Source of the DNA: a virus | Taxonomy: Duplodnaviria; Caudoviricetes | Reading direction: 5' to 3' (one strand) | IMG/VR virus record: IMGVR_UViG_3300028887_000079 | Span: 32,001 to 96,000 of that record | Length of the DNA: 64,000 nt | Part shown: piece by piece, positions 17,263 to 60,162 of the stretch | Layout of the letters: the number at the start of each line of letters is the position of its first letter | Position numbering within the stretch: the stretch's first letter is position 1 | The notes under the pieces: model-generated | Told to the model about the DNA's origin: nothing | What the model saw: only the letters and a program-made list of their open reading frames with translations | Database searches by the model: none | Made by a program: the position numbers and the translations under genes

Positions 17263-17294
17263 AATATACATTCGTTGTTTGAAAAAGACACCCC
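17263..17294 (-). promoter_or_regulatory. early promoter GGGGTGTCTTTTTCA-N11-TATATT
   Basis: one of 5 copies with identical spacing. Confidence 0.8.
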
Positions 17295-31701: not shown

Positions 31702-32628
31702 TTAGTCTTCGGCCGCATCAAGCACGGTCATAAGGGAATTGACTTCGTCATCGGCTTCATTGACGAGGCCGAGAACGTTGCTGACAAAACCACGGATCTT
31801 GTCGGCGATGTTAGTGAACCAATCCGCCAGCTTGGAGAAGATGCCTTCGCGGAGCTTGGCTTCGCCGAGGGTATCCGGAAGCGGGATTGCCTTGAGATCT
31901 TCAGGATCAGCAGCGGCAACGGTGGTCTTCACAGTTTGCTTGATCGTTTCAGCATCCTTCTGTGCCTCATCGAACATATCCTTCATTTCGAGGAGGATGG
32001 CGTTGAGGTCGGAGCTGACGATCGCATCGGCTGCCTTGACAGCGTCAATAGCCTTTTCCAGCTGAGGGCGCATCTTCACAATGAATTCGGCAACAGCCTT
32101 GCTCTTCTGAGAATTGGTGATGGTGGTTGCGGAGTAGAGGCCGGTAGTGACATCGTCACCGGTAAGGCCATACTTTTCCATTTCCGCCTTGGAAACTTCG
32201 ATGTTGTGAATGCCATCTTCAAGCACGCGCTTCGCATTGGAAGCATACTTGGAAGTAAGCGTGTTCACCATACCGTTGAGCTTCTCGTCATAGATTGCCT
32301 TACGGACAAGGAACACAGCGCTGCGGGCGCCCTTAAAGATGCTTTCCTTGTCGGCGTCAGCCTTGGCAAGGGGGCTGTGGATGCGGTTGAGCGAAGCACG
32401 CATATCGGCAGGCTCAATCTCCATTTCCTTCGCGAGTGCTTCTTTGGCATCCGCGATCTTCTGTGCAAGGTCTTCGGATACTTCGGCGGACGCGAGGGCT
32501 TCTTCGCAGCGGGCGATAAATGCCTTGTCGTCATCGAGATAGTAACCGAAATTGGTCATCTTCGCAAGGGATCCCTTGCGCTTCACGGTGCCGGTAGAAC
32601 GGGCGCCTGCTTCATTGTGTGGATTCAT
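31702..32628 (-). CDS. helical coiled-coil protein (head cluster)
   Basis: AGGAG RBS, high-expression codons. Confidence 0.6.
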   Translation of the reverse strand: MNPHNEAGARSTGTVKRKGSLAKMTNFGYYLDDDKAFIARCEEALASAEVSEDLAQKIADAKEALAKEMEIEPADMRASLNRIHSPLAKADADKESIFKGARSAVFLVRKAIYDEKLNGMVNTLTSKYASNAKRVLEDGIHNIEVSKAEMEKYGLTGDDVTTGLYSATTITNSQKSKAVAEFIVKMRPQLEKAIDAVKAADAIVSSDLNAILLEMKDMFDEAQKDAETIKQTVKTTVAAADPEDLKAIPLPDTLGEAKLREGIFSKLADWFTNIADKIRGFVSNVLGLVNEADDEVNSLMTVLDAAED

Positions 32629-44486: not shown

Positions 44487-44885
44487 TTACTTGATTGACG
44501 GACTGGTCAATTCCCAAGGGAACTCAAACCACGCCTCGCTATCCTTATGCAATTCCGGGACGAACAGCCCGCAAAGATCCGGCTGGACTTTCGCGGTCTC
44601 CTTCGAGACATCCGTGTAGAAAATCGGGTTATACTTTTGATAGTCAACCAACGTATTTCCGGTGTCACAAATATCGTCCACAATAAGGCAGCCTTCACGA
44701 GGCGCCGTCAAAAATTCAACCTTCAGCAGGTGCGAGAAAAGGACCGCAAGGCAGGCGCCACCGCGAGGGATGCCATACACCCCATTCACGAAGCGCTTAG
44801 TCTTCACAAGTTCCTTTGCCGCAGTGCCTGCCGAAAGGACAACATCTTCCCAAGTGCGATGGACAACTCTAGGCGTTTGCTTCAT
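44487..44885 (-). CDS. type I phosphoribosyltransferase (purine PRT-like)
   Basis: YGIPRGG, LIVDDICDTGNT, WFEFPWE. Confidence 0.85.
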   Translation of the reverse strand: MKQTPRVVHRTWEDVVLSAGTAAKELVKTKRFVNGVYGIPRGGACLAVLFSHLLKVEFLTAPREGCLIVDDICDTGNTLVDYQKYNPIFYTDVSKETAKVQPDLCGLFVPELHKDSEAWFEFPWELTSPSIK

Positions 44886-45576
44886 ATTCAATCGGATCCT
44901 TTGTTCCGTTTGCTTCAAAAGCAGCCTTGCGGTCAATGCAGGTGCCGCACGTGCCACAAGCCTTTTCGCCGCCCTTATAGCAGCTCCACGTCAATTCGTA
45001 AGGAACTTTCAGGCGCAAGCCCTCGGCGACCACGCCAGCCTTGTTCAGGTTGATGAGCGGGCGCCAAACGTGAATCTTTCCGTAAGTGCCGATCGAAATG
45101 GCGTTATCCATAGCATCGGCGAAGGCGGGAGAACAATCAGCGTATGCCTGCCCGGCGGCATCATCCGCATGTGCGCCATACACAACCACGGCATCCTGAC
45201 CGGGGAAGAGGGAATCGGCGTAAGCGGTAGCGATGGACAAAAGCAAGCCGTTGCGGAACGGGACGTAAGTGCCAACGCGGCCTTCACCATTTTCTGCGAT
45301 CTGTTCGGCGTAGGACTTATCCGGAATTTCCGTCTTGGAATCCTTCATGAGCGAGCAAACATCGCCGGCATACTTCATCACGCAAGAAATGTCTTCTTCG
45401 ATATGGCGGACGCCATAATGTTCGGCGACCTTGCGAGCGCATTCAAGTTCCTTGTCGTGGCGCTGCCCGTAATAGAGCGTGGCGGTGACAACATTTTCCT
45501 TGCCATACTTTTCAATGGCGAGGGCAACACAGGTGGTAGAATCGACTCCACCGGAATTCAAAACCAATGCCTTCAT
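44869..45576 (-). CDS. queC: 7-cyano-7-deazaguanine synthase
   Basis: SGGVDST, YGQRH, YVPFRNG, YADC, TWSCY, CGTCGTCIDR. Confidence 0.95.
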   Translation of the reverse strand: MKALVLNSGGVDSTTCVALAIEKYGKENVVTATLYYGQRHDKELECARKVAEHYGVRHIEEDISCVMKYAGDVCSLMKDSKTEIPDKSYAEQIAENGEGRVGTYVPFRNGLLLSIATAYADSLFPGQDAVVVYGAHADDAAGQAYADCSPAFADAMDNAISIGTYGKIHVWRPLINLNKAGVVAEGLRLKVPYELTWSCYKGGEKACGTCGTCIDRKAAFEANGTKDPIEYEANA

Positions 45577-45620
45577 TTGACATTCTCCTATTTGAAATGT
45601 TTATACGCAAAAAGGACACC

Positions 45621-46385
45621 TTAGAAAGTGTCCCAAATGAGCTGGTTCAACTTGGCGACTGCACAACTAATCATATGCCCGCGGTTGTATCCGTAAGCCC
45701 GGATGAACTCCGGAACGGATGTGACCGGCTTGATGTAGGTGAACGAGTCAACCGAATCAAAGTCAATATAGCGTGCGAGTTTGGAAGTGATGCCGAGGCC
45801 GTGAATATGCACATCGCGAGCGCGGGCATACCAAACGAGTTCACGCATCAGGCGGGCAACATCGTGGCAGTTCGTCAAACCGGATCCGGCAACGCCACCA
45901 ATAGCGAAGAAGCCGCCGGGGCCGACCTGCTGGCAGTAATCGGCGAACTTTTGAATCGGGTCAAAGATATGCCAAACGAGGGTAGGTTCCTCGCCGACAA
46001 GTTTGATGAGTTTGTCACGGAGACGCGCATATTCCTTTTCGCCAACCACGGACTGAATATCCAGTTCGAAGAAGTGAGTGAAATACTTGCGGTATTTCTT
46101 GATGAAAGCCGCGTAGTCTTCCACATACTTGTCGAGGTTAAATTCGCCCTTGAGTTTGCCCTTCTTGTGCGCCATCATCATAGAGAAGGCGCCGGAGTCA
46201 AGCAAGATTTCTTGTCCCGGTTCGGGACCTGAATAAAGCTCCAGCGCCTCCTCAACGCGCTCGGGGGATGCCTTGGACAAGTAATAGAACGACACAAGGC
46301 AATACTTGAATTTGTATTTACGGAATGCTTCTTTCGAGACGGACGCATGAAGCTTTCCGATGTCAAGACCGGCGTAATACTTCAA
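45621..46385 (-). CDS. dpdA: DpdA-like / TGT-fold base-exchange transglycosylase
   Basis: LLDSGAFS, ELDI, VWH, IGG, HIHGLG, DSVDS TGT-barrel motifs; located between ParB-like gene and queC. Confidence 0.65.
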   Translation of the reverse strand: MKYYAGLDIGKLHASVSKEAFRKYKFKYCLVSFYYLSKASPERVEEALELYSGPEPGQEILLDSGAFSMMMAHKKGKLKGEFNLDKYVEDYAAFIKKYRKYFTHFFELDIQSVVGEKEYARLRDKLIKLVGEEPTLVWHIFDPIQKFADYCQQVGPGGFFAIGGVAGSGLTNCHDVARLMRELVWYARARDVHIHGLGITSKLARYIDFDSVDSFTYIKPVTSVPEFIRAYGYNRGHMISCAVAKLNQLIWDTF

Positions 46386-46396
46386 AGCGGACCTCC

Positions 46397-46990
46397 TTAC
46401 ACCTTGTCCCAACCGATAATGTCAAAGTTTTCTTCGCCTTCGGAATTATCGTTGACCGGACCTTCGGAACCATCAACATCCACCGGGCATTCAGGTTCAG
46501 CGGCGGGCGCATTGGATTCGCCAACAATTTCGGAAGCGATGCCTGCTTCTTGCGGGAGCATGTTGCGCTTCTTGAGAATCTTGGGATCGAGCGGGCGGAT
46601 GTTCTTGATGTCCGTGATGATGTTTTTCATTTCAACAAGATACTTGGAGTGAACGCGGCCGCCCATAATTTCCTTCGCAACGGAAGCAAAGTCCAGCTTA
46701 CCGAGGGACTGTGTCACGTTGTCGATAATGCGGAATTCGTCTTCAGCCTCCTTGTCAAGGTCGGAGATGATGCACGGAATTTCGGACAAGCCAAGTTTCT
46801 GCGCAGCCATAAGACGGCCGTGGCCGGTGATGACAACATGTTCGGCGTTCACCACAATCGGAATTTGGAAGCCGAAGCATTCAATGGAGTTCGCGATCGA
46901 GTCCACATTGTCTGCGTGAGTCTTGTTGTTGTTCTTGTAAGGATAGATGTCCTTTACGGGGAGATAAACGATTTCGAGTTTTTTAGTCAT
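46397..46990 (-). CDS. ParB/Sulfiredoxin-like N-terminal domain protein
   Basis: PY.NN, SIECFGFQIPIVV, GHGRLMAA, RIIDN. Confidence 0.85.
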   Translation of the reverse strand: MTKKLEIVYLPVKDIYPYKNNNKTHADNVDSIANSIECFGFQIPIVVNAEHVVITGHGRLMAAQKLGLSEIPCIISDLDKEAEDEFRIIDNVTQSLGKLDFASVAKEIMGGRVHSKYLVEMKNIITDIKNIRPLDPKILKKRNMLPQEAGIASEIVGESNAPAAEPECPVDVDGSEGPVNDNSEGEENFDIIGWDKV

Positions 46991-47007
46991 AGTAACCAAA
47001 TATACGA

Positions 47008-47037
47008 AAGCGGGCGCCTAAATCCAGCGCCCGCTTT
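47008..47037 (-). terminator. intrinsic terminator ending the ncRNA array
   Basis: AAAGCGGGCGC...GCGCCCGCTTT. Confidence 0.7.
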
Positions 47038-47059
47038 ACAAGGAAAGAAAAAACATGAA

Positions 47060-47121
47060 ACCGCCACCGGAGTTCGGATTTCCACCGTATTAAACAGGAC
47101 TGTCTCCCGTCAGGTGGCGGC
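47060..47121 (-). ncRNA. structured RNA with T-loop-like hairpin
   Basis: GCCGCCACC/GGUGGCGGU closing stem; CGG-UGGAAAU-CCG. Confidence 0.45.
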
Positions 47122-47151
47122 TACCCTCATGAGGTATGACTAAATATACGA

Positions 47152-47266
47152 TGCCAGTGACTCGGGGAAGGATCGAACTTCCGAGGATAGAGGCCCATCC
47201 AAGTCGCGGCGCCTCTGTTTCCGCGACTCACGGCTTGCCAACCACCGCTCACGCAAGCCACTGACA
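47152..47266 (-). ncRNA. tRNA-like RNA with extended acceptor stem and aberrant anticodon arm
   Basis: 13-bp terminal stem, D-like arm, 9-bp stem/11-nt loop, variable arm, GGAAG-UUCGAUC-CUUCC T-arm. Confidence 0.65.
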
Positions 47267-47602
47267 TCAAAAAGAATGTTCGCCCCAATCGGCTCGGGGA
47301 TGCTTATGGCGGAATGCTTCGTGCCACACCTTGCCGAGATTTGATACATGAAACACTGTATCGGAGCAAGAAAAATCGGGCCCTTTCCTGATTGTCATAA
47401 GCCCTTTTGCGACCAATGATTCACAAGCAAGAAAGAGTTTTCCTTTCGAATTGCTATTGAGCCCCAAGAAATTGCGATAACCACCGGAGCCCCATCCATT
47501 GAAGACCGGATAGGTGTTGAAGCCCAATGCGCTTGACATTGCCTTGACTTCTTCGACCGAGCAGGTCACTCCATAAAAACTAAGTCGCAATCCTTTTGAC
47601 AT
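47267..47602 (-). CDS. hypothetical protein embedded in the RNA array
   Basis: 111-aa ORF from MSKGLRL. Confidence 0.55.
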   Translation of the reverse strand: MSKGLRLSFYGVTCSVEEVKAMSSALGFNTYPVFNGWGSGGYRNFLGLNSNSKGKLFLACESLVAKGLMTIRKGPDFSCSDTVFHVSNLGKVWHEAFRHKHPRADWGEHSF

Positions 47603-47624
47603 TTTGAACTCTCTTAAATGGTAT

Positions 47625-47698
47625 GCGGCAGTTCCGCTCTTACCTGCCCGGTTTCCGCTTTGGGCGGGCGCCGTTAAGCCTCGGAGTAGAACTGCCGC
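47625..47698 (-). ncRNA. structured RNA unit
   Basis: perfect 10-bp closing stem GCGGCAGUUC/GAACUGCCGC with internal hairpin. Confidence 0.45.
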
Positions 47699-48091
47699 TA
47701 GGCATTGGCCACTGCTGTTAGCCACCAACTTTTTTGCGGTAGTTAAGTCCCGTCAGGTGTATCGGGCCCTGCGCCGCCACCATTGCCAGGCGTGGAATCC
47801 TTCCCGTCTTGTTCACCGCGCTTCGCCTCGGAGTCCAACCCTTGCGGGTGTATGCCCCACTGGCAGATTACTTCTACAAGAAACTACTCACAGCGGTCGG
47901 TTGATGTCTCTTTGATAGGAGTGAAGTCAACCGAAAAACAAAGCTCTCCTCTTTCAAAATGAAAGGTGCTGGCAAGGGATTCTAGCTTTATGCCACGCGC
48001 GGCTCTTCACCGTCTCAGGGGATTGCTCCCGCACCTCTTTCAAAAGCGCCGCCTCGGAGATGCATTCCCCGAGACTTCTGCCGTGTGCCTA

Positions 48092-48165
48092 AACCCGTTA
48101 CCGGACTTGAACCAGTGACTTCCCGGGAGTGACCACCCGAGCTCTACCAACTGAGCTAAACGCAC
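48092..48165 (-). tRNA. tRNA-like / pseudo-tRNA, 8-nt anticodon loop (UGGUCACU)
   Basis: canonical D-arm UAGCUCAGUUGGUAGAGC and T-arm; weak acceptor stem. Confidence 0.6.
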
Positions 48166-48400
48166 AAAGGCTCCGACAGCATTTCAAACTTGCGGTGTGC
48201 CCTAGCCCGGTGGGCGATGCGTTCCTCGTAAGGACGGAGCATCTGAGCATCACCAAACACAATATACAAAATGTTCGTCCGCTTCTACTTATTACCCCCA
48301 GCCCTTTCGGCCGCCAGGGACAAACATAAGGTCCGATCCCGAATCGTTTGCGCATGATGCCCAAGCCTAGGACGAGGCACGCACGCCTTCTTTTATGTAG

Positions 48401-48475
48401 GGGCAGGAGCCGGACTCGAACCGACAACCTCAGGGCCGAAACACCCTGCGCTCTCCCAGTTAGAGCTATCCTGCC
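48401..48475 (-). tRNA. tRNA-like, 8-nt anticodon loop (UGUUUCGG)
   Basis: perfect 7-bp acceptor GGCAGGA/UCCUGCC, D-arm and T-arm present; non-canonical loop. Confidence 0.7.
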
Positions 48476-48769
48476 ATAGTCCTTGTGGTTGATAGTCACT
48501 TTTCATCCGGTAGTAGCCGAACGAGCCCTGAAGGATGCCGGGCGCTCCGTCTTCACACCCTATTGACGGAACCGAGGGAAACTACTTCACACGGGTAATC
48601 AGCCCGCACTACGTAGGCGGTCCTGATGCAGTTTGGCCCTCCGCCGGGCGCTGCTTAGTCGGTAGTCGTAACATCCGACCTGCACCAGTCAGTTTTCCGA
48701 TTTCCACAGAGGCACGTCCTACGGGGCCACTTCATGCTAGAAGCTCTAACTTCATCGGGAAGCTATTCA

Positions 48770-48895
48770 AATTCAAGTAGGCGCTGCCGGGGCTTTCCGC
48801 TTCCCTATTGGGTTGCCGCGTCTTGGCTTCGAACCAAGGGAGCGACCACCGGGCTTGGACCCTATTTCATCAGTGCGACAACGCCTGCTTGAATT
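48770..48895 (-). ncRNA. structured RNA with long terminal stem and T-loop hairpin
   Basis: ~20-bp closing stem; CUUGG-UUCGAAG-CCAAG. Confidence 0.55.
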
Positions 48896-48900
48896 CAAAT

Positions 48901-49032
48901 TAAGTGGGCAGGAATGAACCTGCATTGCCCGCGGAGTGCTGTCTTTCCCTGCCGGGATGTTTACACCATTCTGCCGCCGCCGGAGTCCTAAGCACACCGG
49001 ATATTAACCGATGCTCATTTAGACGACCACTT
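48901..49032 (-). ncRNA. tRNA-chassis RNA (acceptor + T-like arm, large insert)
   Basis: AAGUGG/CCACUU-A; GCAGG-UUCAUU-CCUGC. Confidence 0.45.
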
Positions 49033-49040
49033 CCGGAATG

Positions 49041-49171
49041 TTAAAAGGAACGCACAGCACCTGCTGGCACACCACGGGCAGGACCTTACCCCCGGCTAAA
49101 CGGGTCATGGCCGCCGGAGCCTAGCAATTTATCTCGAGTTCAGCTAGGACGCTACTGCACGTTCCTTCTAA
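49041..49171 (-). ncRNA. structured RNA unit
   Basis: ~19-bp closing stem UUAGAAGGAACGUGCAGUA/UGCUGUGCGUUCCUUUUAA with several G-U pairs. Confidence 0.55.
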
Positions 49172-49177
49172 AGGTTG

Positions 49178-49296
49178 AATCTCAATGCTTCTACCGGCGT
49201 TAAGCGGATCCAATGGCGACTAACCTGACCCGGCACGGGTGCGACCCGATTTTCAATTAAGCCCACAAAGAACAACGGAATGGGCGCACTGAGATT
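49178..49296 (-). ncRNA. structured RNA unit
   Basis: 11-bp closing stem AAUCUCAGUGC/GCAUUGAGAUU, internal hairpins. Confidence 0.5.
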
Positions 49297-49300
49297 TTAA

Positions 49301-49454
49301 TGGACCTGCCTGGAGTCGAACCAGCGCATCCTCAACATCGCTTCTGCCTACCGATTGGCTGTAGCGGTTTCCCGCCCAGTGTTTACACGCACCTTATTTC
49401 AGAGCTATCGGCATATTGCGTTGGTTTGAGGCAAGCCCACGCGTTCGCAAGCCC
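49301..49454 (-). ncRNA. mini-tmRNA-like RNA (G3:U70, A73)
   Basis: GGGCUUG/CAGGUCC-A acceptor, UUCGACU T-loop, extended CCUCAA/UUGAGG helix. Confidence 0.6.
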
Positions 49455-49466
49455 AAGATTTTTTAG

Positions 49467-49644
49467 CAGCACCCGCCGGGATCGAACCGGTAGGCTTCCC
49501 AAGGAACATCCTACTACAAGCTTCGGATTCTATTACAAGGGTCGCCAGCGCAGAAACATTGCAATGCCGCTGCCATTTAGAACGGAACCAACCTTCACCT
49601 CGGGCAAGTTTGCAACCCTGCCTCCGGCTATCCGTTCAGGTGCC
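49467..49644 (-). ncRNA. tRNA-chassis RNA with ~145-nt insert
   Basis: GGCACCU/GGGUGCU acceptor; CCGG-UUCGAUC-CCGG T-arm. Confidence 0.6.
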
Positions 49645-49659
49645 AAAAGATTTTTTTAG

Positions 49660-49733
49660 TAGCGGGGGCAGGACTCGAACGCTGCGACCTCGTGGTTATG
49701 AGCCACGCGAGCTACCAACTGCTCTACCCCGCA
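49660..49733 (-). tRNA. tRNA-Met(CAT), initiator-like
   Basis: cloverleaf, loop CUCAUAA, 1:72 mismatch, bulged T-stem. Confidence 0.85.
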
Positions 49734-50029
49734 TCGGGTTCGGGAACAGCGTTATCCTAGCTTCCGGAGCGCGTCAACGCCCAGTTCCCTGACAGCGGGT
49801 TGTTCAATCCCTATTCTCTGTTGCTGCTACAACATCATCCGACTGCGCTGCCGGCGCGAGGCTGATACGCTCAGGCTCTTAGGCGACACATTCTTACGCT
49901 CCAGTGTCTTGCCCTCTCGGGCGCAACTGGCAACTACGCATCCGCATTTCATTTTTTTGCCGGTCGAGGCGGTGTGCGAGACGGACCGGTGAGATCTTTC
50001 CCTGAACTCGGGGCGATTCTCAAATTCGC

Positions 50030-50141
50030 TCTTCCGCTGGAGGTCTTTAATTATACCAGCTCTTTTTACGGCTTGCATTCCGCTGCCGCACCCGATTTAG
50101 AATTGCGTAGGATCTGCAGCGCCCGCGCAACTCACGGAAGA
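50030..50141 (-). ncRNA. structured RNA unit (multi-branch)
   Basis: UCUUCCG/CGGAAGA closing stem with three hairpins. Confidence 0.45.
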
Positions 50142-50149
50142 AAAACTTT

Positions 50150-50237
50150 GCCGTTGCCTTCGCGTGTAACGATTGCCACCCGGCGAATCTATTATACGCT
50201 CTACCCCGTGCTGAAGGGCGGTGTCGCCGACAACGGC
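50150..50237 (-). ncRNA. structured RNA unit
   Basis: GCCGUUGUC/GGCAACGGC closing stem; CCGCCC/GGGUGG inner helix. Confidence 0.45.
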
Positions 50238-50248
50238 GAGAAATTAAA

Positions 50249-50351
50249 AGCGCATACCCGCGGTCCACCTATATCCGCCAGTATTTAGCCGTCCCGGACA
50301 CGGCGGGGCACAGTGGTTCCAAGAATGACTTGTCTCCCACACGTATGCGCC
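50249..50351 (-). ncRNA. structured RNA unit
   Basis: GGCGCAUAC/GUAUGCGCU closing stem immediately 3' of tmRNA. Confidence 0.5.
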
Positions 50352-50356
50352 ATTCG

Positions 50357-50709
50357 TGGAGGTGGCGGGAGTCGAACCCGCGTCCAAAAATACTTACGCG
50401 CTTGCTACTACACGCTTTTTCCTTGCATTTGCTCTCGCCTTGCCACGCCCAAAAGGAAACGGCGATGCTTCGGCCTACAGCGACAGATTTCGGATATGCG
50501 CCTCGCTGTCAAGCTTCTATCCTAGCCCGATTTGCGACTCGGACTCCATCCCTACGGGCGGCGAGGTGGGTCCAAGGGTTGCCCTAAATTAGGCAGCCTG
50601 TGCTACAGGTGCAGCATTTATTTTTTACAGACTTTTTTACGAGTGCCCACGTCTGTGACCTCGGCGTGCAACTTGCGTATCGGTATCCCTGTCGAAACCA
50701 GGCACCCCC
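50357..50709 (-). ncRNA. ssrA: tmRNA, tag (A)AAPVAQAA
   Basis: 5' GGGGGUGCCUGGUUUCGAC; 3' GACGCGGGUUCGACUCCCGCCACCUCCA; G3:U70; resume codon after AUAAAU at 50615. Confidence 0.92.
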
Positions 50710-50715
50710 GATAGT

Positions 50716-50928
50716 TTAAGCCTGAGCCGGAGCTTCAGCCGTTTCGGTCTTTTCAGCCTTGGCGCCCTTTTCGGCAGCCTTGGCGGCCTTTTCGGCAGCG
50801 CGTTCAGCCTTGCGCTGTTCACGGAGCGGGGTCAGTTCGGCGAGAACGGCGGCGGTGTCCTTTCCGGCCTTCTTGAGGGTGGAAGCCTTGTGGGCGAGTT
50901 TGCGAATCTTCAACTGTAATTCGGTCAT
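50716..50928 (-). CDS. small basic helical protein heading the RNA operon
   Basis: AAGGAG RBS, high-expression codons, stop just upstream of the tmRNA 5' end. Confidence 0.75.
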   Translation of the reverse strand: MTELQLKIRKLAHKASTLKKAGKDTAAVLAELTPLREQRKAERAAEKAAKAAEKGAKAEKTETAEAPAQA

Positions 50929-50969
50929 TTTGATCTCCTTGGTTAAAATGCCAGTTAAATGTCCTCTGT

Positions 50970-50978
50970 AATATACGG
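50970..50978 (-). promoter_or_regulatory. CCGTATATT promoter driving the tmRNA/ncRNA operon
   Basis: same motif precedes many minus-strand genes. Confidence 0.6.
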
Positions 50979-51034
50979 ACTTGTGGACTCATTGGCAATG
51001 CCCGCCCGAAAAAAGTCCATTTTTCTGCAAAAAC

Positions 51035-51066
51035 GGGGTGTCTTTTTCAAAATACGGATGTATATT
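51035..51066 (+). promoter_or_regulatory. early promoter GGGGTGTCTTTTTCA-N11-TATATT
   Basis: exact motif copy. Confidence 0.8.
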
Positions 51067-51109
51067 ATAGACATAGCCCGCAGGTAGCGGGTAGACAAGG
51101 AAAGAAATT

Positions 51110-51391
51110 ATGGAAGATAATAAGAAGAAGCCCCTCTACCGCCTCGGGACCGCTATGGAACGCGCTTTGTTTGCCAGCGGAAAAGCACAATACTTTAATG
51201 AATGTGCCGAATATCATCGCGCCATTTGGCGCAAAACCCGCTCACAAAAGCGTGCCGCCCACGCTATGGCGTGGATCTCCAAGATGCTCAAAAAAAAGGA
51301 ATTTTGGATGAAAGCCGCAGAATACTGGGGCAACAAGATTTGTGAAACATACCGCCTCGGGCAGTCCGCCCGCGTTATTTTCGGAGTATAG
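51110..51391 (+). CDS. hypothetical protein (paralog of 51401-51649)
   Basis: shared MER.LFA...FW.KA..Y..KI. Confidence 0.7.
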   Translation: MEDNKKKPLYRLGTAMERALFASGKAQYFNECAEYHRAIWRKTRSQKRAAHAMAWISKMLKKKEFWMKAAEYWGNKICETYRLGQSARVIFGV

Positions 51392-55776: not shown

Positions 55777-56034
55777 ATGCCAACGGACAGAAAACAATAT
55801 AATCGGGATTACTACAAGAAACATCCCGGTATATGGAAAAAAAATTACGAAAAGAACGCGGACGCACGCCGCGAGAGTTCTAGGAACTACGCGAACAAGA
55901 AGTGGGAGTCCGACCCCGAGTATAGAAAGAGTCATACCGAAAATACAATCCGGCGCACGCGCATTTTGCGCCTTGCTGGCTCTATAACTAAAAGCGCTTC
56001 CAAGGCCCTTGCAGCACTAGAAAAGCTCTTATAG
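55777..56034 (+). CDS. small basic hypothetical protein
   Basis: GAGG RBS. Confidence 0.55.
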   Translation: MPTDRKQYNRDYYKKHPGIWKKNYEKNADARRESSRNYANKKWESDPEYRKSHTENTIRRTRILRLAGSITKSASKALAALEKLL

Positions 56035-56065
56035 GGGTGTCTTTTTCAAACAAAGAATGTATATT
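56034..56065 (+). promoter_or_regulatory. early promoter GGGGTGTCTTTTTCA-N11-TATATT
   Basis: exact motif copy. Confidence 0.8.
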
Positions 56066-56111
56066 TAAGGTAGGCGGCGATGTTGCCTGCCTTCTTTTAT
56101 GCGAGGAAATT

Positions 56112-59187: not shown

Positions 59188-59620
59188 AATTGATATGGCT
59201 CATTATCGGATATTTCTTTTGGACGCTCGGATGGTTTATCCAGTTAATTGGCGACTGGTGCAATTCGTGGCTCGATTGGATTGAAGAATGGTTGGACTAT
59301 TGCGAAGACCATATCAACAAGGATGACCGATGAAAATCTTTCGCTGTGGCAAATGCCATAAACATTTCCCCGCCGAATACAAGGTGAACAAATGGACTGT
59401 TGGCTGGTGTCCGGAATGCAAGGTCATCCGCAGAATTTACTTCGAGCGTGAAGATTAGCGTGCCATCGCGAATTGATGTTCGTATATTATTCAACAAAGG
59501 AAATCACATGAAGCAGTATTTCGCAAATAATTTCAACTATGAAGCCGAGGCCAGTTCCGAAGCTTCAATTTTGCGTATACTGCAGCGGTGATAAAACTCC
59601 AAGAGAAGTGTGAAGAGAAG

Positions 59621-59662: not shown

Positions 59663-59734
59663 GGCACTATAGGCAAGCGGTTACGCCTCCTGAATTTCAC
59701 TCAGGCGACTGCGGTTCGACTCCGCATAGTGCTA
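59663..59734 (+). tRNA. tRNA-Glu(TTC)
   Basis: cloverleaf; loop AUUUCAC (A32). Confidence 0.88.
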
Positions 59735-59739
59735 CTATT

Positions 59740-59812
59740 GGGACGTTAGCTCAGTTGGTAGAGCACCTGTTTTGCAAGCAGGGGGTCAAGGGTTCGAGCC
59801 CCTTACGCTCCA
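59740..59812 (+). tRNA. tRNA-Ala(TGC)
   Basis: cloverleaf, G3:U70. Confidence 0.9.
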
Positions 59813-59817
59813 CGAAC

Positions 59818-59899
59818 GGATAGGTATGCAAGTGGTAAAGCAGGCTGACTGTAAATCAGCTCCCTTCGGGGTTCGCGGGTTCAAATCCTACCCTATCCA
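59818..59899 (+). tRNA. tRNA-Tyr(GTA)
   Basis: cloverleaf with long variable arm. Confidence 0.9.
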
Positions 59900-59907
59900 C
59901 TAAACAT

Positions 59908-59979
59908 TGGATTGTAGCTCAATGGTAGAGCGGTGCGCCGTTAACGCAAGGGTTGCAGGTTCGAGTCCTGCCTTTCCAG
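59908..59979 (+). tRNA. tRNA-Asn(GTT)
   Basis: cloverleaf; loop CCGUUAA (C33); two U-U pairs in acceptor. Confidence 0.8.
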
Positions 59980-59983
59980 CTAT

Positions 59984-60065
59984 GGAAGCGTCCCACAACT
60001 GGTGGTGGAGCGGTCTTGAAAACCGCCGGCCGTAAGGTTTGGGGGTTCGAATCCCTCCGCTTCCG
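59984..60065 (+). tRNA. tRNA-Ser(TGA)
   Basis: cloverleaf, variable arm, G73. Confidence 0.88.
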
Positions 60066-60071
60066 CTACAT

Positions 60072-60158
60072 AGAGGCGTGGCCGAGTGGTCTAAGGCAGC
60101 ACTTTGCTAAAGTGCCGTAGTGAAATACCTACCGCTGGTCCGAATCCAGCCGCCTCTG
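60072..60158 (+). tRNA. tRNA-Ser(GCT)
   Basis: cloverleaf, variable arm, T-loop UCCGAAU. Confidence 0.85.
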
Positions 60159-60162
60159 TCCA

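Follow-up and report, generated by a model that had tools for sequence, protein, structure and literature searches.

The tRNA region of phage T4 carries transfer RNA (tRNA) genes together with the species 1 and species 2 RNAs, stable RNAs of unknown function, and these are released by host RNA-processing enzymes. Here we analyzed a 64,000-nucleotide (nt) window of viral DNA, positions 32,001 to 96,000 of the IMG/VR record IMGVR_UViG_3300028887_000079, and within it a 3.7-kb island on the minus strand (50709-47060) that is poor in open reading frames (ORFs) in a gene-dense genome. Like a T4-type cluster, the island mixes tRNA genes with compact, apparently stable RNAs in what looks like a single transcription unit, in a large lytic phage. 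Unlike such clusters, it has one normal tRNA against about 15 other units, includes a transfer-messenger RNA (tmRNA), has units that are shuffled among relatives, and contains several internal promoters. Island coordinates given below refer to the window, and the features lie on the minus strand unless stated otherwise.

Other described RNAs resemble parts of the island. GOLLD (RF01998) and ROOL (RF03087) are structured RNAs, likewise without an assigned function, that are found near phage tRNA genes; in contrast, the island gave no such Rfam match at E values up to 10, and its units are small (74 to 285 nt) and many rather than one giant RNA. Hudson et al. listed phage tmRNAs, including a mycobacteriophage DS6A sequence that extends barely beyond the tRNA-like domain (TLD), and described inhibition of tmRNA by TLD-like molecules, perhaps by titration of SmpB (PMC4131195). 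The island similarly holds a full tmRNA (RF00023), a unit whose sequence suggests a tmRNA-type end (U9), and one with a similar end (U8), but U8 and U9 fall below the Rfam threshold and coexist with the full tmRNA, and U8 lacks the alanine identity pair. YrlA (Y RNA-like) RNAs have been described as modular noncoding RNAs with a tRNA-mimicking domain in bacteria and phages (PMC4201824). The modular build with a tRNA-like domain is shared, whereas the island has no Rfam Y RNA or YrlA match and the phage genome has no Ro60/Rsr (TROVE, PF05731) gene. Finally, phage tRNAs can counter tRNA-cleaving defenses (PMC10264068, PMC11555353, and PMC11464382). Those tRNAs are tRNA-shaped with anticodon loops unlike the host form, as are two genes of the island; they are decoding-competent with 7-nt loops, however, whereas the two genes here have 8-nt loops, one of them without U33. 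Our literature searches, which were aimed at related topics and not at these RNAs themselves, returned no description of the island's RNA families.

Evidence for an array of structured RNA genes

Rfam and ARAGORN assignments, folding energies relative to shuffled sequences, conservation above the coding level, and covariation support the view that the island consists of distinct structured RNA genes, several of them on a tRNA- or tmRNA-like chassis, as a preliminary description of the locus had proposed at its core. We regard the directly observable part of this picture as highly probable: an island with promoters and a terminator, a tmRNA/tRNA set, and about 10 further stem-closed RNAs, marked by selection, covariation, and cassette shuffling. 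The fuller explanation, a tailed-phage accessory island made up of independent small RNA genes, including processing of the transcripts and action on host factors, seems to us probable, with a good deal less assurance. A mechanical ORF map agreed with the earlier statement that the stretch is ORF-poor within a gene-dense genome: ORFs are tightly packed, and the only long stretches free of ORFs of at least 75 amino acids (aa) lie within the island, at a second tRNA cluster, and at three short gaps. For comparison we used two complete IMG/VR genomes (G001 and G002), five JGI contigs, and five ENA/Logan contigs, all of which share the layout of a small ORF, an array, and a ParB-like gene. The arrays of these relatives span 1 to 2 kb, and that of the window is the largest.

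Positions 46800 to 51200 were scanned against 4227 families (Rfam 15) at E values up to 10, with ARAGORN alongside. The two programs agreed on the tmRNA, a tRNA-Met, and a pair of tRNA-shaped genes in which the anticodon loop has 8 nt, all on the minus strand, consistent with the earlier assessment that only the tmRNA and the tRNA-Met are conventional. Any other Rfam family in this region appeared at chance level only (E > 0.5), and the remaining units do match nothing recognized, as first reported. Related loci L001 and L002 likewise yielded no other family (matches at chance level, E > 0.5), and U8 and U9 submitted alone at permissive thresholds gave no match. The original count of about 20 distinct structured RNAs proved somewhat high: there are four database-recognized genes and about 12 supported units, while three to four stretches lack support. 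The only direct repeats in the region are the tRNA-like 3' ends, in line with the statement that the units are not repeats of one another.

Collecting homologs and looking for covariation, as the preliminary description had advised, revealed compensatory changes in U14, U12, U22, and U8, the last of which is described below. U14 (about 285 nt, 48480-48763) has no Rfam match and is the first unit after the promoter in five relatives. Its nine sequences gave 56 consensus pairs with 93.4% of the cells paired; 21 of the 56 pairs had changed on both sides, compared with 10.9 ± 2.1 in shuffles (0 of 500 as high) and no more than 9 in slid controls. U12 (about 125 nt, 48903-49030), which is present in most related arrays, had 93.8% of cells paired across seven sequences and six pairs in which both bases had changed, where shuffles gave 2.1 (1 of 500). 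In U22 (115 nt, 47152-47266) a 10- to 13-bp stem closes the unit and a T-loop-like hairpin (47177-47171) lies beside its 3' strand; both stems showed both-side changes among five sequences, with the loop reading NUCGAUC. These families also bear on the strand. The U14 alignment contains 62 G:U cells and would be only 82% paired if read on the opposite strand, and for U14 and U12, 93 to 94% of cells paired on the minus strand versus 82 to 84% on the other, a drop that is due to the G:U pairs and that supports the earlier argument from such pairs for minus-strand folding. Minus-strand folding energy was also below plus-strand energy in most units.

Conservation was gauged against coding sequence. 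Relative to G001, its nearest relative, the window differs by 20 to 33% at third codon positions of the capsid (MCP), ParB, and ORF70 genes and by 3.5 to 11% at first and second positions, compared with 1 to 12% for the RNA units (U20, 1%; U18, 4%; U22, 5%; U14, about 7 to 12% depending on the range compared). The units thus diverge 3- to 20-fold less than third codon positions, and those compared with G001 are under purifying selection as strong as that on amino-acid-changing codon positions. Such low divergence, the covariation above shuffled and slid controls, and the G:U-dependent strand asymmetry are hard to reconcile with a decaying or junk region composed of tRNA and tmRNA gene remnants, DNA-level signals (promoters, terminators, a recombination hot spot), and chance hairpins. 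Decay would account for a 70-nt tmRNA remnant in G001, for the altered T loop of one odd tRNA there (tRNA-like A), and for the lack of signal in 50149-49735, but this reading is already disfavored, and we consider it very improbable.

Folding energies were compared with 200 dinucleotide shuffles per unit, and some stretches were scanned separately with an in-house script. Eight units with closing stems of 8 to 19 bp beat their shuffles, with z scores from -1.97 to -4.21, so the proposed comparison with shuffled controls came out in favor of structure. The lowest score was that of U13 (126 nt, 48770-48895; 8+11-bp closing stem; z -4.21, 0 of 200 shuffles as good), which has an internal T-loop-like hairpin at 48833-48827. 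U20 (74 nt, 47625-47698; z -3.80, 0 of 200) is a hairpin-type unit with an 11-bp closing stem directly upstream of the ribosome-binding site (RBS) of the protein gene ORF111, and differs from its G001 counterpart by one indel and no substitution. The three-way U10 (119 nt, 49178-49296; 11-bp closing stem) reached z -3.54 (0 of 200), compared with -1.24 on the plus strand. U11 (about 130 nt, 49041-49171; 19-bp closing stem) scored -3.02, U22 -2.76, and the multi-branched U2 (about 100 nt, 50250-50351; 9-bp closing stem) -2.72, with 2 of 200 shuffles as good. U23 (81 nt, 47060-47140; 9-bp closing stem; z -2.40) is the last unit before the terminator and is 91% identical to G001, although the substitutions break predicted pairs. 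U3 (about 90 nt, 50150-50238; 9-bp closing stem) scored -1.97, and a 26-nt core is found identically in a unit beside the G002 tmRNA, where the closing stem has a different sequence.

The remaining segments did not stand out by energy. U4, U5, and U18 folded no better than shuffles, and in the in-house scan 49950-49735, U14, U16, and U19 gave z near 0; because the true tmRNA scored only -1.0 in that scan, a weak z is no evidence against structure. U18 (123 nt, 47968-48090) is conserved (96% identical to G001) and holds several short hairpins, with z only -0.56. U16a (48275-48390) combines a conserved hairpin with a module at 48320-48287 that it shares with a family widespread among related arrays. 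Its 5' 59 nt are 91% identical to G001, the module has matches in L004, L005, L008, and L021, and the fold z of the whole was not significant. Most related arrays also carry another conserved RNA family, about 180 nt long (L002 7592-7771, L017 4526-4705, L020 4285-4463, L021 5224-5321), of which the window retains only a 34-nt module, at 48320-48287. U16b (48170-48255) is a conserved leader preceding tRNA-like B and is 90% identical to G001, and U19 (47735-47965) is a weakly supported segment with 44 gapped columns against G001, flanks 88 to 92% identical, and substitutions that break predicted pairs. The predicted folds of U16b, U19, and U23 are all contradicted by G001 substitutions.

Units with tRNA-like and tmRNA-like ends

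The full-length tmRNA (50354-50709) encodes the tag AAPVAQAA, has a G3:U70 pair, and lacks an encoded CCA. It scored 156.1 bits against RF00023 (cut-off 47), and ARAGORN also called both the tmRNA and its tag. The G002 ortholog, with the tag AAPVAMAA, is at a different locus, 17 kb away, with its own promoter, neighboring units, and terminator, and in G001 a deletion has left the 70-nt remnant. A 117-nt match in L001 that looked like a miniature tmRNA was rejected as a gene: it is the 5' 70 nt of the tmRNA after the deletion, fused to the next promoter.

The tRNA-Met (CAU anticodon, 49660-49733) was found by Rfam (53.6 bits) and ARAGORN and has orthologs in L002, L004, L006, L020, and L021. 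A U1-U72 mismatch tops its acceptor stem both in the window and in L002 (6950-7024); this 1:72 mismatch is initiator-like, yet the anticodon stem lacks the three G:C pairs of that kind of tRNA.

Two further genes are tRNA-shaped. In tRNA-like A (48401-48475) the acceptor, D, and T arms are intact, the anticodon loop has 8 nt, and the discriminator is C; it scored 46.5 bits against the Rfam tRNA family (RF00005; threshold 29). In tRNA-like B (48092-48165; 32.1 bits against the same threshold) the D and T arms are intact, the acceptor stem is weak with a conserved 3:70 mismatch, and the 8-nt anticodon loop lacks U33. ARAGORN reported no valid anticodon for either, and loops of this length rule out the standard 7-nt decoding loop. 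Their relatives differ chiefly in the anticodon arm. For tRNA-like A, L005 keeps the loop with a stem that covaries, and G001 has the arm wholly replaced, with identical acceptor and T stems and one base different in the T loop. For tRNA-like B, four of the eight loop positions and the acceptor end differ in G001, and the D and T arms are nearly identical. In both G001 orthologs, the anticodon loop thus differs in length or sequence. This pattern is not one of uniform decay and fits a tRNA body under selection with a free or diversifying loop; fast change of the loop is compatible with a decoy role without demonstrating one.

A scan for T loops (a 4- to 5-bp stem around the consensus) returned the tmRNA, U8, U9, U13, tRNA-like A, tRNA-like B, and U22. 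Six units had been credited with an acceptor stem and a T arm, and this held for five of them; the sixth (the unit at 48901, our U12) had no T loop in the scan and ends in a 3' hairpin with a variable loop that is not a T arm. Conversely, the T-loop hairpin of U13 (the unit at 48770) was missing from that first list. By direct reading, none of the tRNA-like genes encodes CCA, and a similar A-rich linker follows the discriminator in tRNA-Met, U8, U9, and tRNA-like A.

U8 (178 nt, 49467-49644) has a tRNA/tmRNA-like end with a 7- to 8-bp acceptor stem, the T loop UUCGAUC, and a discriminator G. It lacks the G3:U70 alanine identity pair, having C3:G70 in the window and G3:C70 in G002, where its homolog is isolated between protein genes. 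Between these two sequences the acceptor stem, an adjacent 5- to 6-bp helix, and one hairpin stem are recoded yet remain paired, and the loops and a 40-nt 3' block are conserved. Two of its hairpin loops carry the self-complementary palindrome UUGCAA. A likeness to the 3' helix-2 strand and resume-codon context of tmRNA was seen by eye only. Tag-like frames that follow an AAAU context in U8 and terminate at a stop in both homologs, 13 and 10 codons long, were discarded, as the peptides are not conserved and the region is a covarying hairpin.

U9 (154 nt, 49301-49454) has a putative tmRNA-like end, with G1-C72, G2-C71, G3:U70, A73, and the T loop UUCGACU. G1-C72, G2-C71, G3:U70, and A73 form the alanine identity set of tmRNA and tRNA-Ala. 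The 3' end of U9 is 81% identical to that of the tmRNA, a helix leaves the junction at the position of tmRNA helix 2, and there is no anticodon arm. Its columns are 99% identical across four genomes that differ by about 20% in ParB, and one T-stem pair has changed from U:A to C:G among them. The L002 copy gave a weak Rfam tmRNA match (17.6 bits, cut-off 47; E 0.0025), and the window copy gave none at E values up to 10. Neither U8 nor U9 has recognizable pseudoknots or a canonical tag frame, and we did not file them as tmRNAs because both are below the Rfam tmRNA threshold.

Transcription signals, proposed processing, and possible targets

The island promoter (50970-50998) has sigma-70-like -35 and -10 elements that match at 10 of 12 hexamer positions with a 17-nt spacer, and its -10 element is the phage motif CGTATATT. 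The window has 11 copies of this motif where 0.9 would be expected, in accord with the motif's earlier designation as a phage promoter motif; the 20 genome-wide copies mostly follow a terminator hairpin and precede an RBS and ATG by 15 to 30 nt. A second exact copy lies within the array (47143-47150), as does a one-base variant (48261-48268) whose aligned position in G001 has the consensus form, and relatives have internal copies of their own, located before tRNA genes. At the far end is an intrinsic terminator (47007-47037) with a 12-bp stem, directly followed by the CGTATATT promoter of the ParB-like gene. Between promoter and terminator we found no terminator-like site on the minus strand except a match inside the tmRNA gene, which is taken as spurious. 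Both ends of the proposed unit, a promoter at 50970 and a terminator at 47008, were therefore confirmed, but the island has at least three promoter motifs rather than one. A U/C-rich run, UUUUCUUUCCU, stands directly before the terminator hairpin in every array, despite the differing units in front of it (window 47040-47060; equivalent site in L002, L005, L017, and L021). A repeated intergenic element of 30 to 100 nt, one copy of which is directly upstream of the island promoter, occurs at window positions 51036-51066, 56017-56093, and 17263-17293, at genome sites beyond the window, and in G001 and G002, and is possibly an early promoter or regulatory region.

The preliminary description had envisaged a single polycistron from 50970, cut by RNase P and RNase Z at tRNA punctuation marks into RNAs that would target anticodon nucleases, toxins, and other host RNA-binding proteins as decoys or aptamers. 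The seven T-loop hairpins and the tRNA-Met are indeed distributed along the array, the only internal terminator-like match is the one in the tmRNA gene, comparison with G001 shows rapid change in the anticodon loops of the odd tRNAs and almost none in their D and T arms, and tRNA-cleaving defenses and phage tRNA countermeasures are established. The array has at least two further promoter motifs, however, and relatives carry others before tRNA genes; moreover, a tRNA-like end is present in only about half of the units and is absent from the 48901 unit, and the defense or nuclease that would be the target cannot be named. We therefore think this version unlikely.

Among the ten related arrays, BLAST comparisons showed whole units present, absent, or reordered, with homology blocks that begin and end at A/U linkers, for example around U9. 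Entire units are thus acquired, dropped, and rearranged among related phages, and the breakpoints fall at A/U-rich linkers. Alternatively, the island might serve translation support only, with a functional tmRNA and tRNAs and the other blocks acting as processing stalks, spacers, or precursor stabilizers similar to rRNA-flanking stems. The tmRNA and tRNA-Met are canonical, six normal tRNAs are encoded in the second cluster (59663-60162), and the near-perfect 11- to 19-bp closing stems with A/U linkers resemble RNase III/E substrates. Against this, the interiors of units, not their stems alone, are conserved (U14, U12, U9, and U20, as well as the U3 core, which is found in G002 under a different stem), the U8 homolog of G002 is alone between protein genes, and the arrays of L017-L019 contain units with no tRNA detected in the array. 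Such a purely supportive role seems to us quite improbable.

In the explanation that we favor, an accessory island of independent small RNA genes, host enzymes would cut the island transcripts into separate stable RNAs. Units with tRNA-like ends would be matured by RNase P and RNase Z, followed by CCA addition, and those with long stems and A/U linkers could be released by RNase III or RNase E. The majority of units terminate in such stems and linkers, which should be as good a fit to RNase III/E as to RNase P/Z, or better. The tRNA- and tmRNA-like RNAs might then act on SmpB, aminoacyl-tRNA synthetases, EF-Tu, or tRNA-cleaving defense nucleases by supplementing, competing with, or sequestering them, and the families that are not tRNA-like might be stable RNAs that work in trans or RNA scaffolds for proteins of the host or the phage. 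Action on host tRNA or tmRNA factors is put forward tentatively, as a possibility. A bolder proposal is a three-part attack on ribosome rescue, in which the full tmRNA, with its short AA-ended tag, would work with the miniaturized U8 and U9, the tRNA bodies with 8-nt loops would soak up tRNA-directed nucleases, and the island would be a cassette library of translation-surveillance RNA mimics. U9 could be chargeable with alanine (G3:U70, A73) and U8 not, and both could bind SmpB, EF-Tu, or stalled ribosomes and thereby block or redirect trans-translation in the host. We find this proposal doubtful.

Several observations weigh against the favored explanation. For U2, U10, U11, and U13 no homolog was found in the relatives, and U3 shares only its 26-nt core with them, so that all five are supported mainly by folding energy. 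When single-sequence folds were compared with G001 substitutions overall, 23 pairs were kept and 23 broken. U19 has a z near 0, and there is no fold signal in 49735-50149 (z +0.09 and +0.24 for 50149-49951; +0.29 for 49950-49735). The earlier picture of back-to-back stem-closed units therefore holds for the eight units that beat shuffles and fails in 50149-49735 and in most of 47965-47735. The former stretch, which had been assigned units at 50030 and at about 49735-49950, had no BLAST match in the relatives; it contains a TATAAT-like site, with another a little further upstream within U3, so that promoters may be present, or else a putative 83-aa ORF (50078-49827; no Pfam match). For U9, RNAalifold prefers a rod-like fold without the T arm, and the variable columns all separate the window from the other three copies, which makes the two folds indistinguishable; its near-identity among genomes could reflect recent exchange instead of selection. 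Finally, genes for SmpB, Rsr (TROVE, PF05731), RtcB, a CCA-adding enzyme, and an RNA ligase were sought in the phage genome, and none was found.

Protein genes, genome setting, and significance

The operon begins with a Lys/Ala/Glu-rich ORF of 70 aa (50716-50928) that has a good RBS and received no assignment from Pfam, PHROG, or Atlas; related loci also have a homologous small ORF in front of the array. Within the array the only credible protein gene is ORF111 (47267-47602), a phage hypothetical protein that matches phrog_13561 (E 9e-7) and whose Atlas model resembles a winged helix. It is 70% identical to its G001 counterpart at the protein level and 79.5% at the nucleotide level, the lowest value among conserved segments except tRNA-like A. 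ORF111 is real, and mechanical ORFs of 73 to 133 aa occur on both strands of the array, so one might suppose that the stretch encodes several overlooked small proteins. However, none of eight candidate ORFs belongs to a Pfam family, candidates overlap the tRNA-like genes, and a 119-aa antisense ORF over U8/U9 is not maintained in relatives, where its start and flanks are lost and all differences are non-synonymous. No conserved or Pfam-matching ORF besides ORF111 was found that would point to translation as small ORFs, which had been raised as a reason to abandon the RNA interpretation, and we judge the supposition extremely improbable. The G001 array has an extra 74-aa ORF (L001 6412-6636) between its U16a homolog and an internal promoter, so that small protein genes, too, are gained and lost in the island.

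The source genome is a single 131.7-kb contig with a near-identical overlap at its termini, and we assign it to a large tailed phage on the basis of its genes for a tail sheath, a major head protein, and a T4-like portal. Searches with the capsid protein, singly and as an alignment, found no IMG/VR relatives beyond G001 and G002, and the core motifs of U14 and U8 were confined in IMG/VR to this clade. No host could be inferred from the tmRNA 5' end, since exact-pattern matches in Cloacimonadota and Thermomicrobiales involve only universal tRNA-like ends; an uncultured bacterium or one of the rumen is the probable host. Relatives have weak or faint matches to PF09603, the Fibrobacter succinogenes major paralogous domain (L020 11364-12618), and these weak domain matches would be the sole host lead, toward Fibrobacter. 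Beyond the island, on the minus strand (window 44869-46999), a ParB-like nuclease-domain gene precedes a conserved gene of 254/263 aa and a homolog of QueC (E 2e-53), an order kept in all relatives; this is a lead toward possible 7-deazaguanine modification of phage DNA. The second tRNA cluster, on the plus strand (59663-60162), encodes six canonical tRNAs (Glu, Ala, Tyr, Asn, Ser, and Ser) and is rearranged in G001 and G002. A CGTATATT motif at 59481, about 180 nt upstream of this cluster, stands directly before the start of a small ORF.

Phage annotation is almost protein-only, and here about 3% of a 132-kb genome is devoted to about 15 small RNAs, which evolve more slowly than the neighboring protein genes compared and move as cassettes. 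Several of the RNA families are well delimited and have no Rfam match, and those backed by covariation, U14, U12, and U22, could be modeled and searched for. A single operon whose tmRNA-like ends are full, reduced, and putatively non-chargeable may provide a natural series on phage manipulation of trans-translation or of tRNA-directed immunity.

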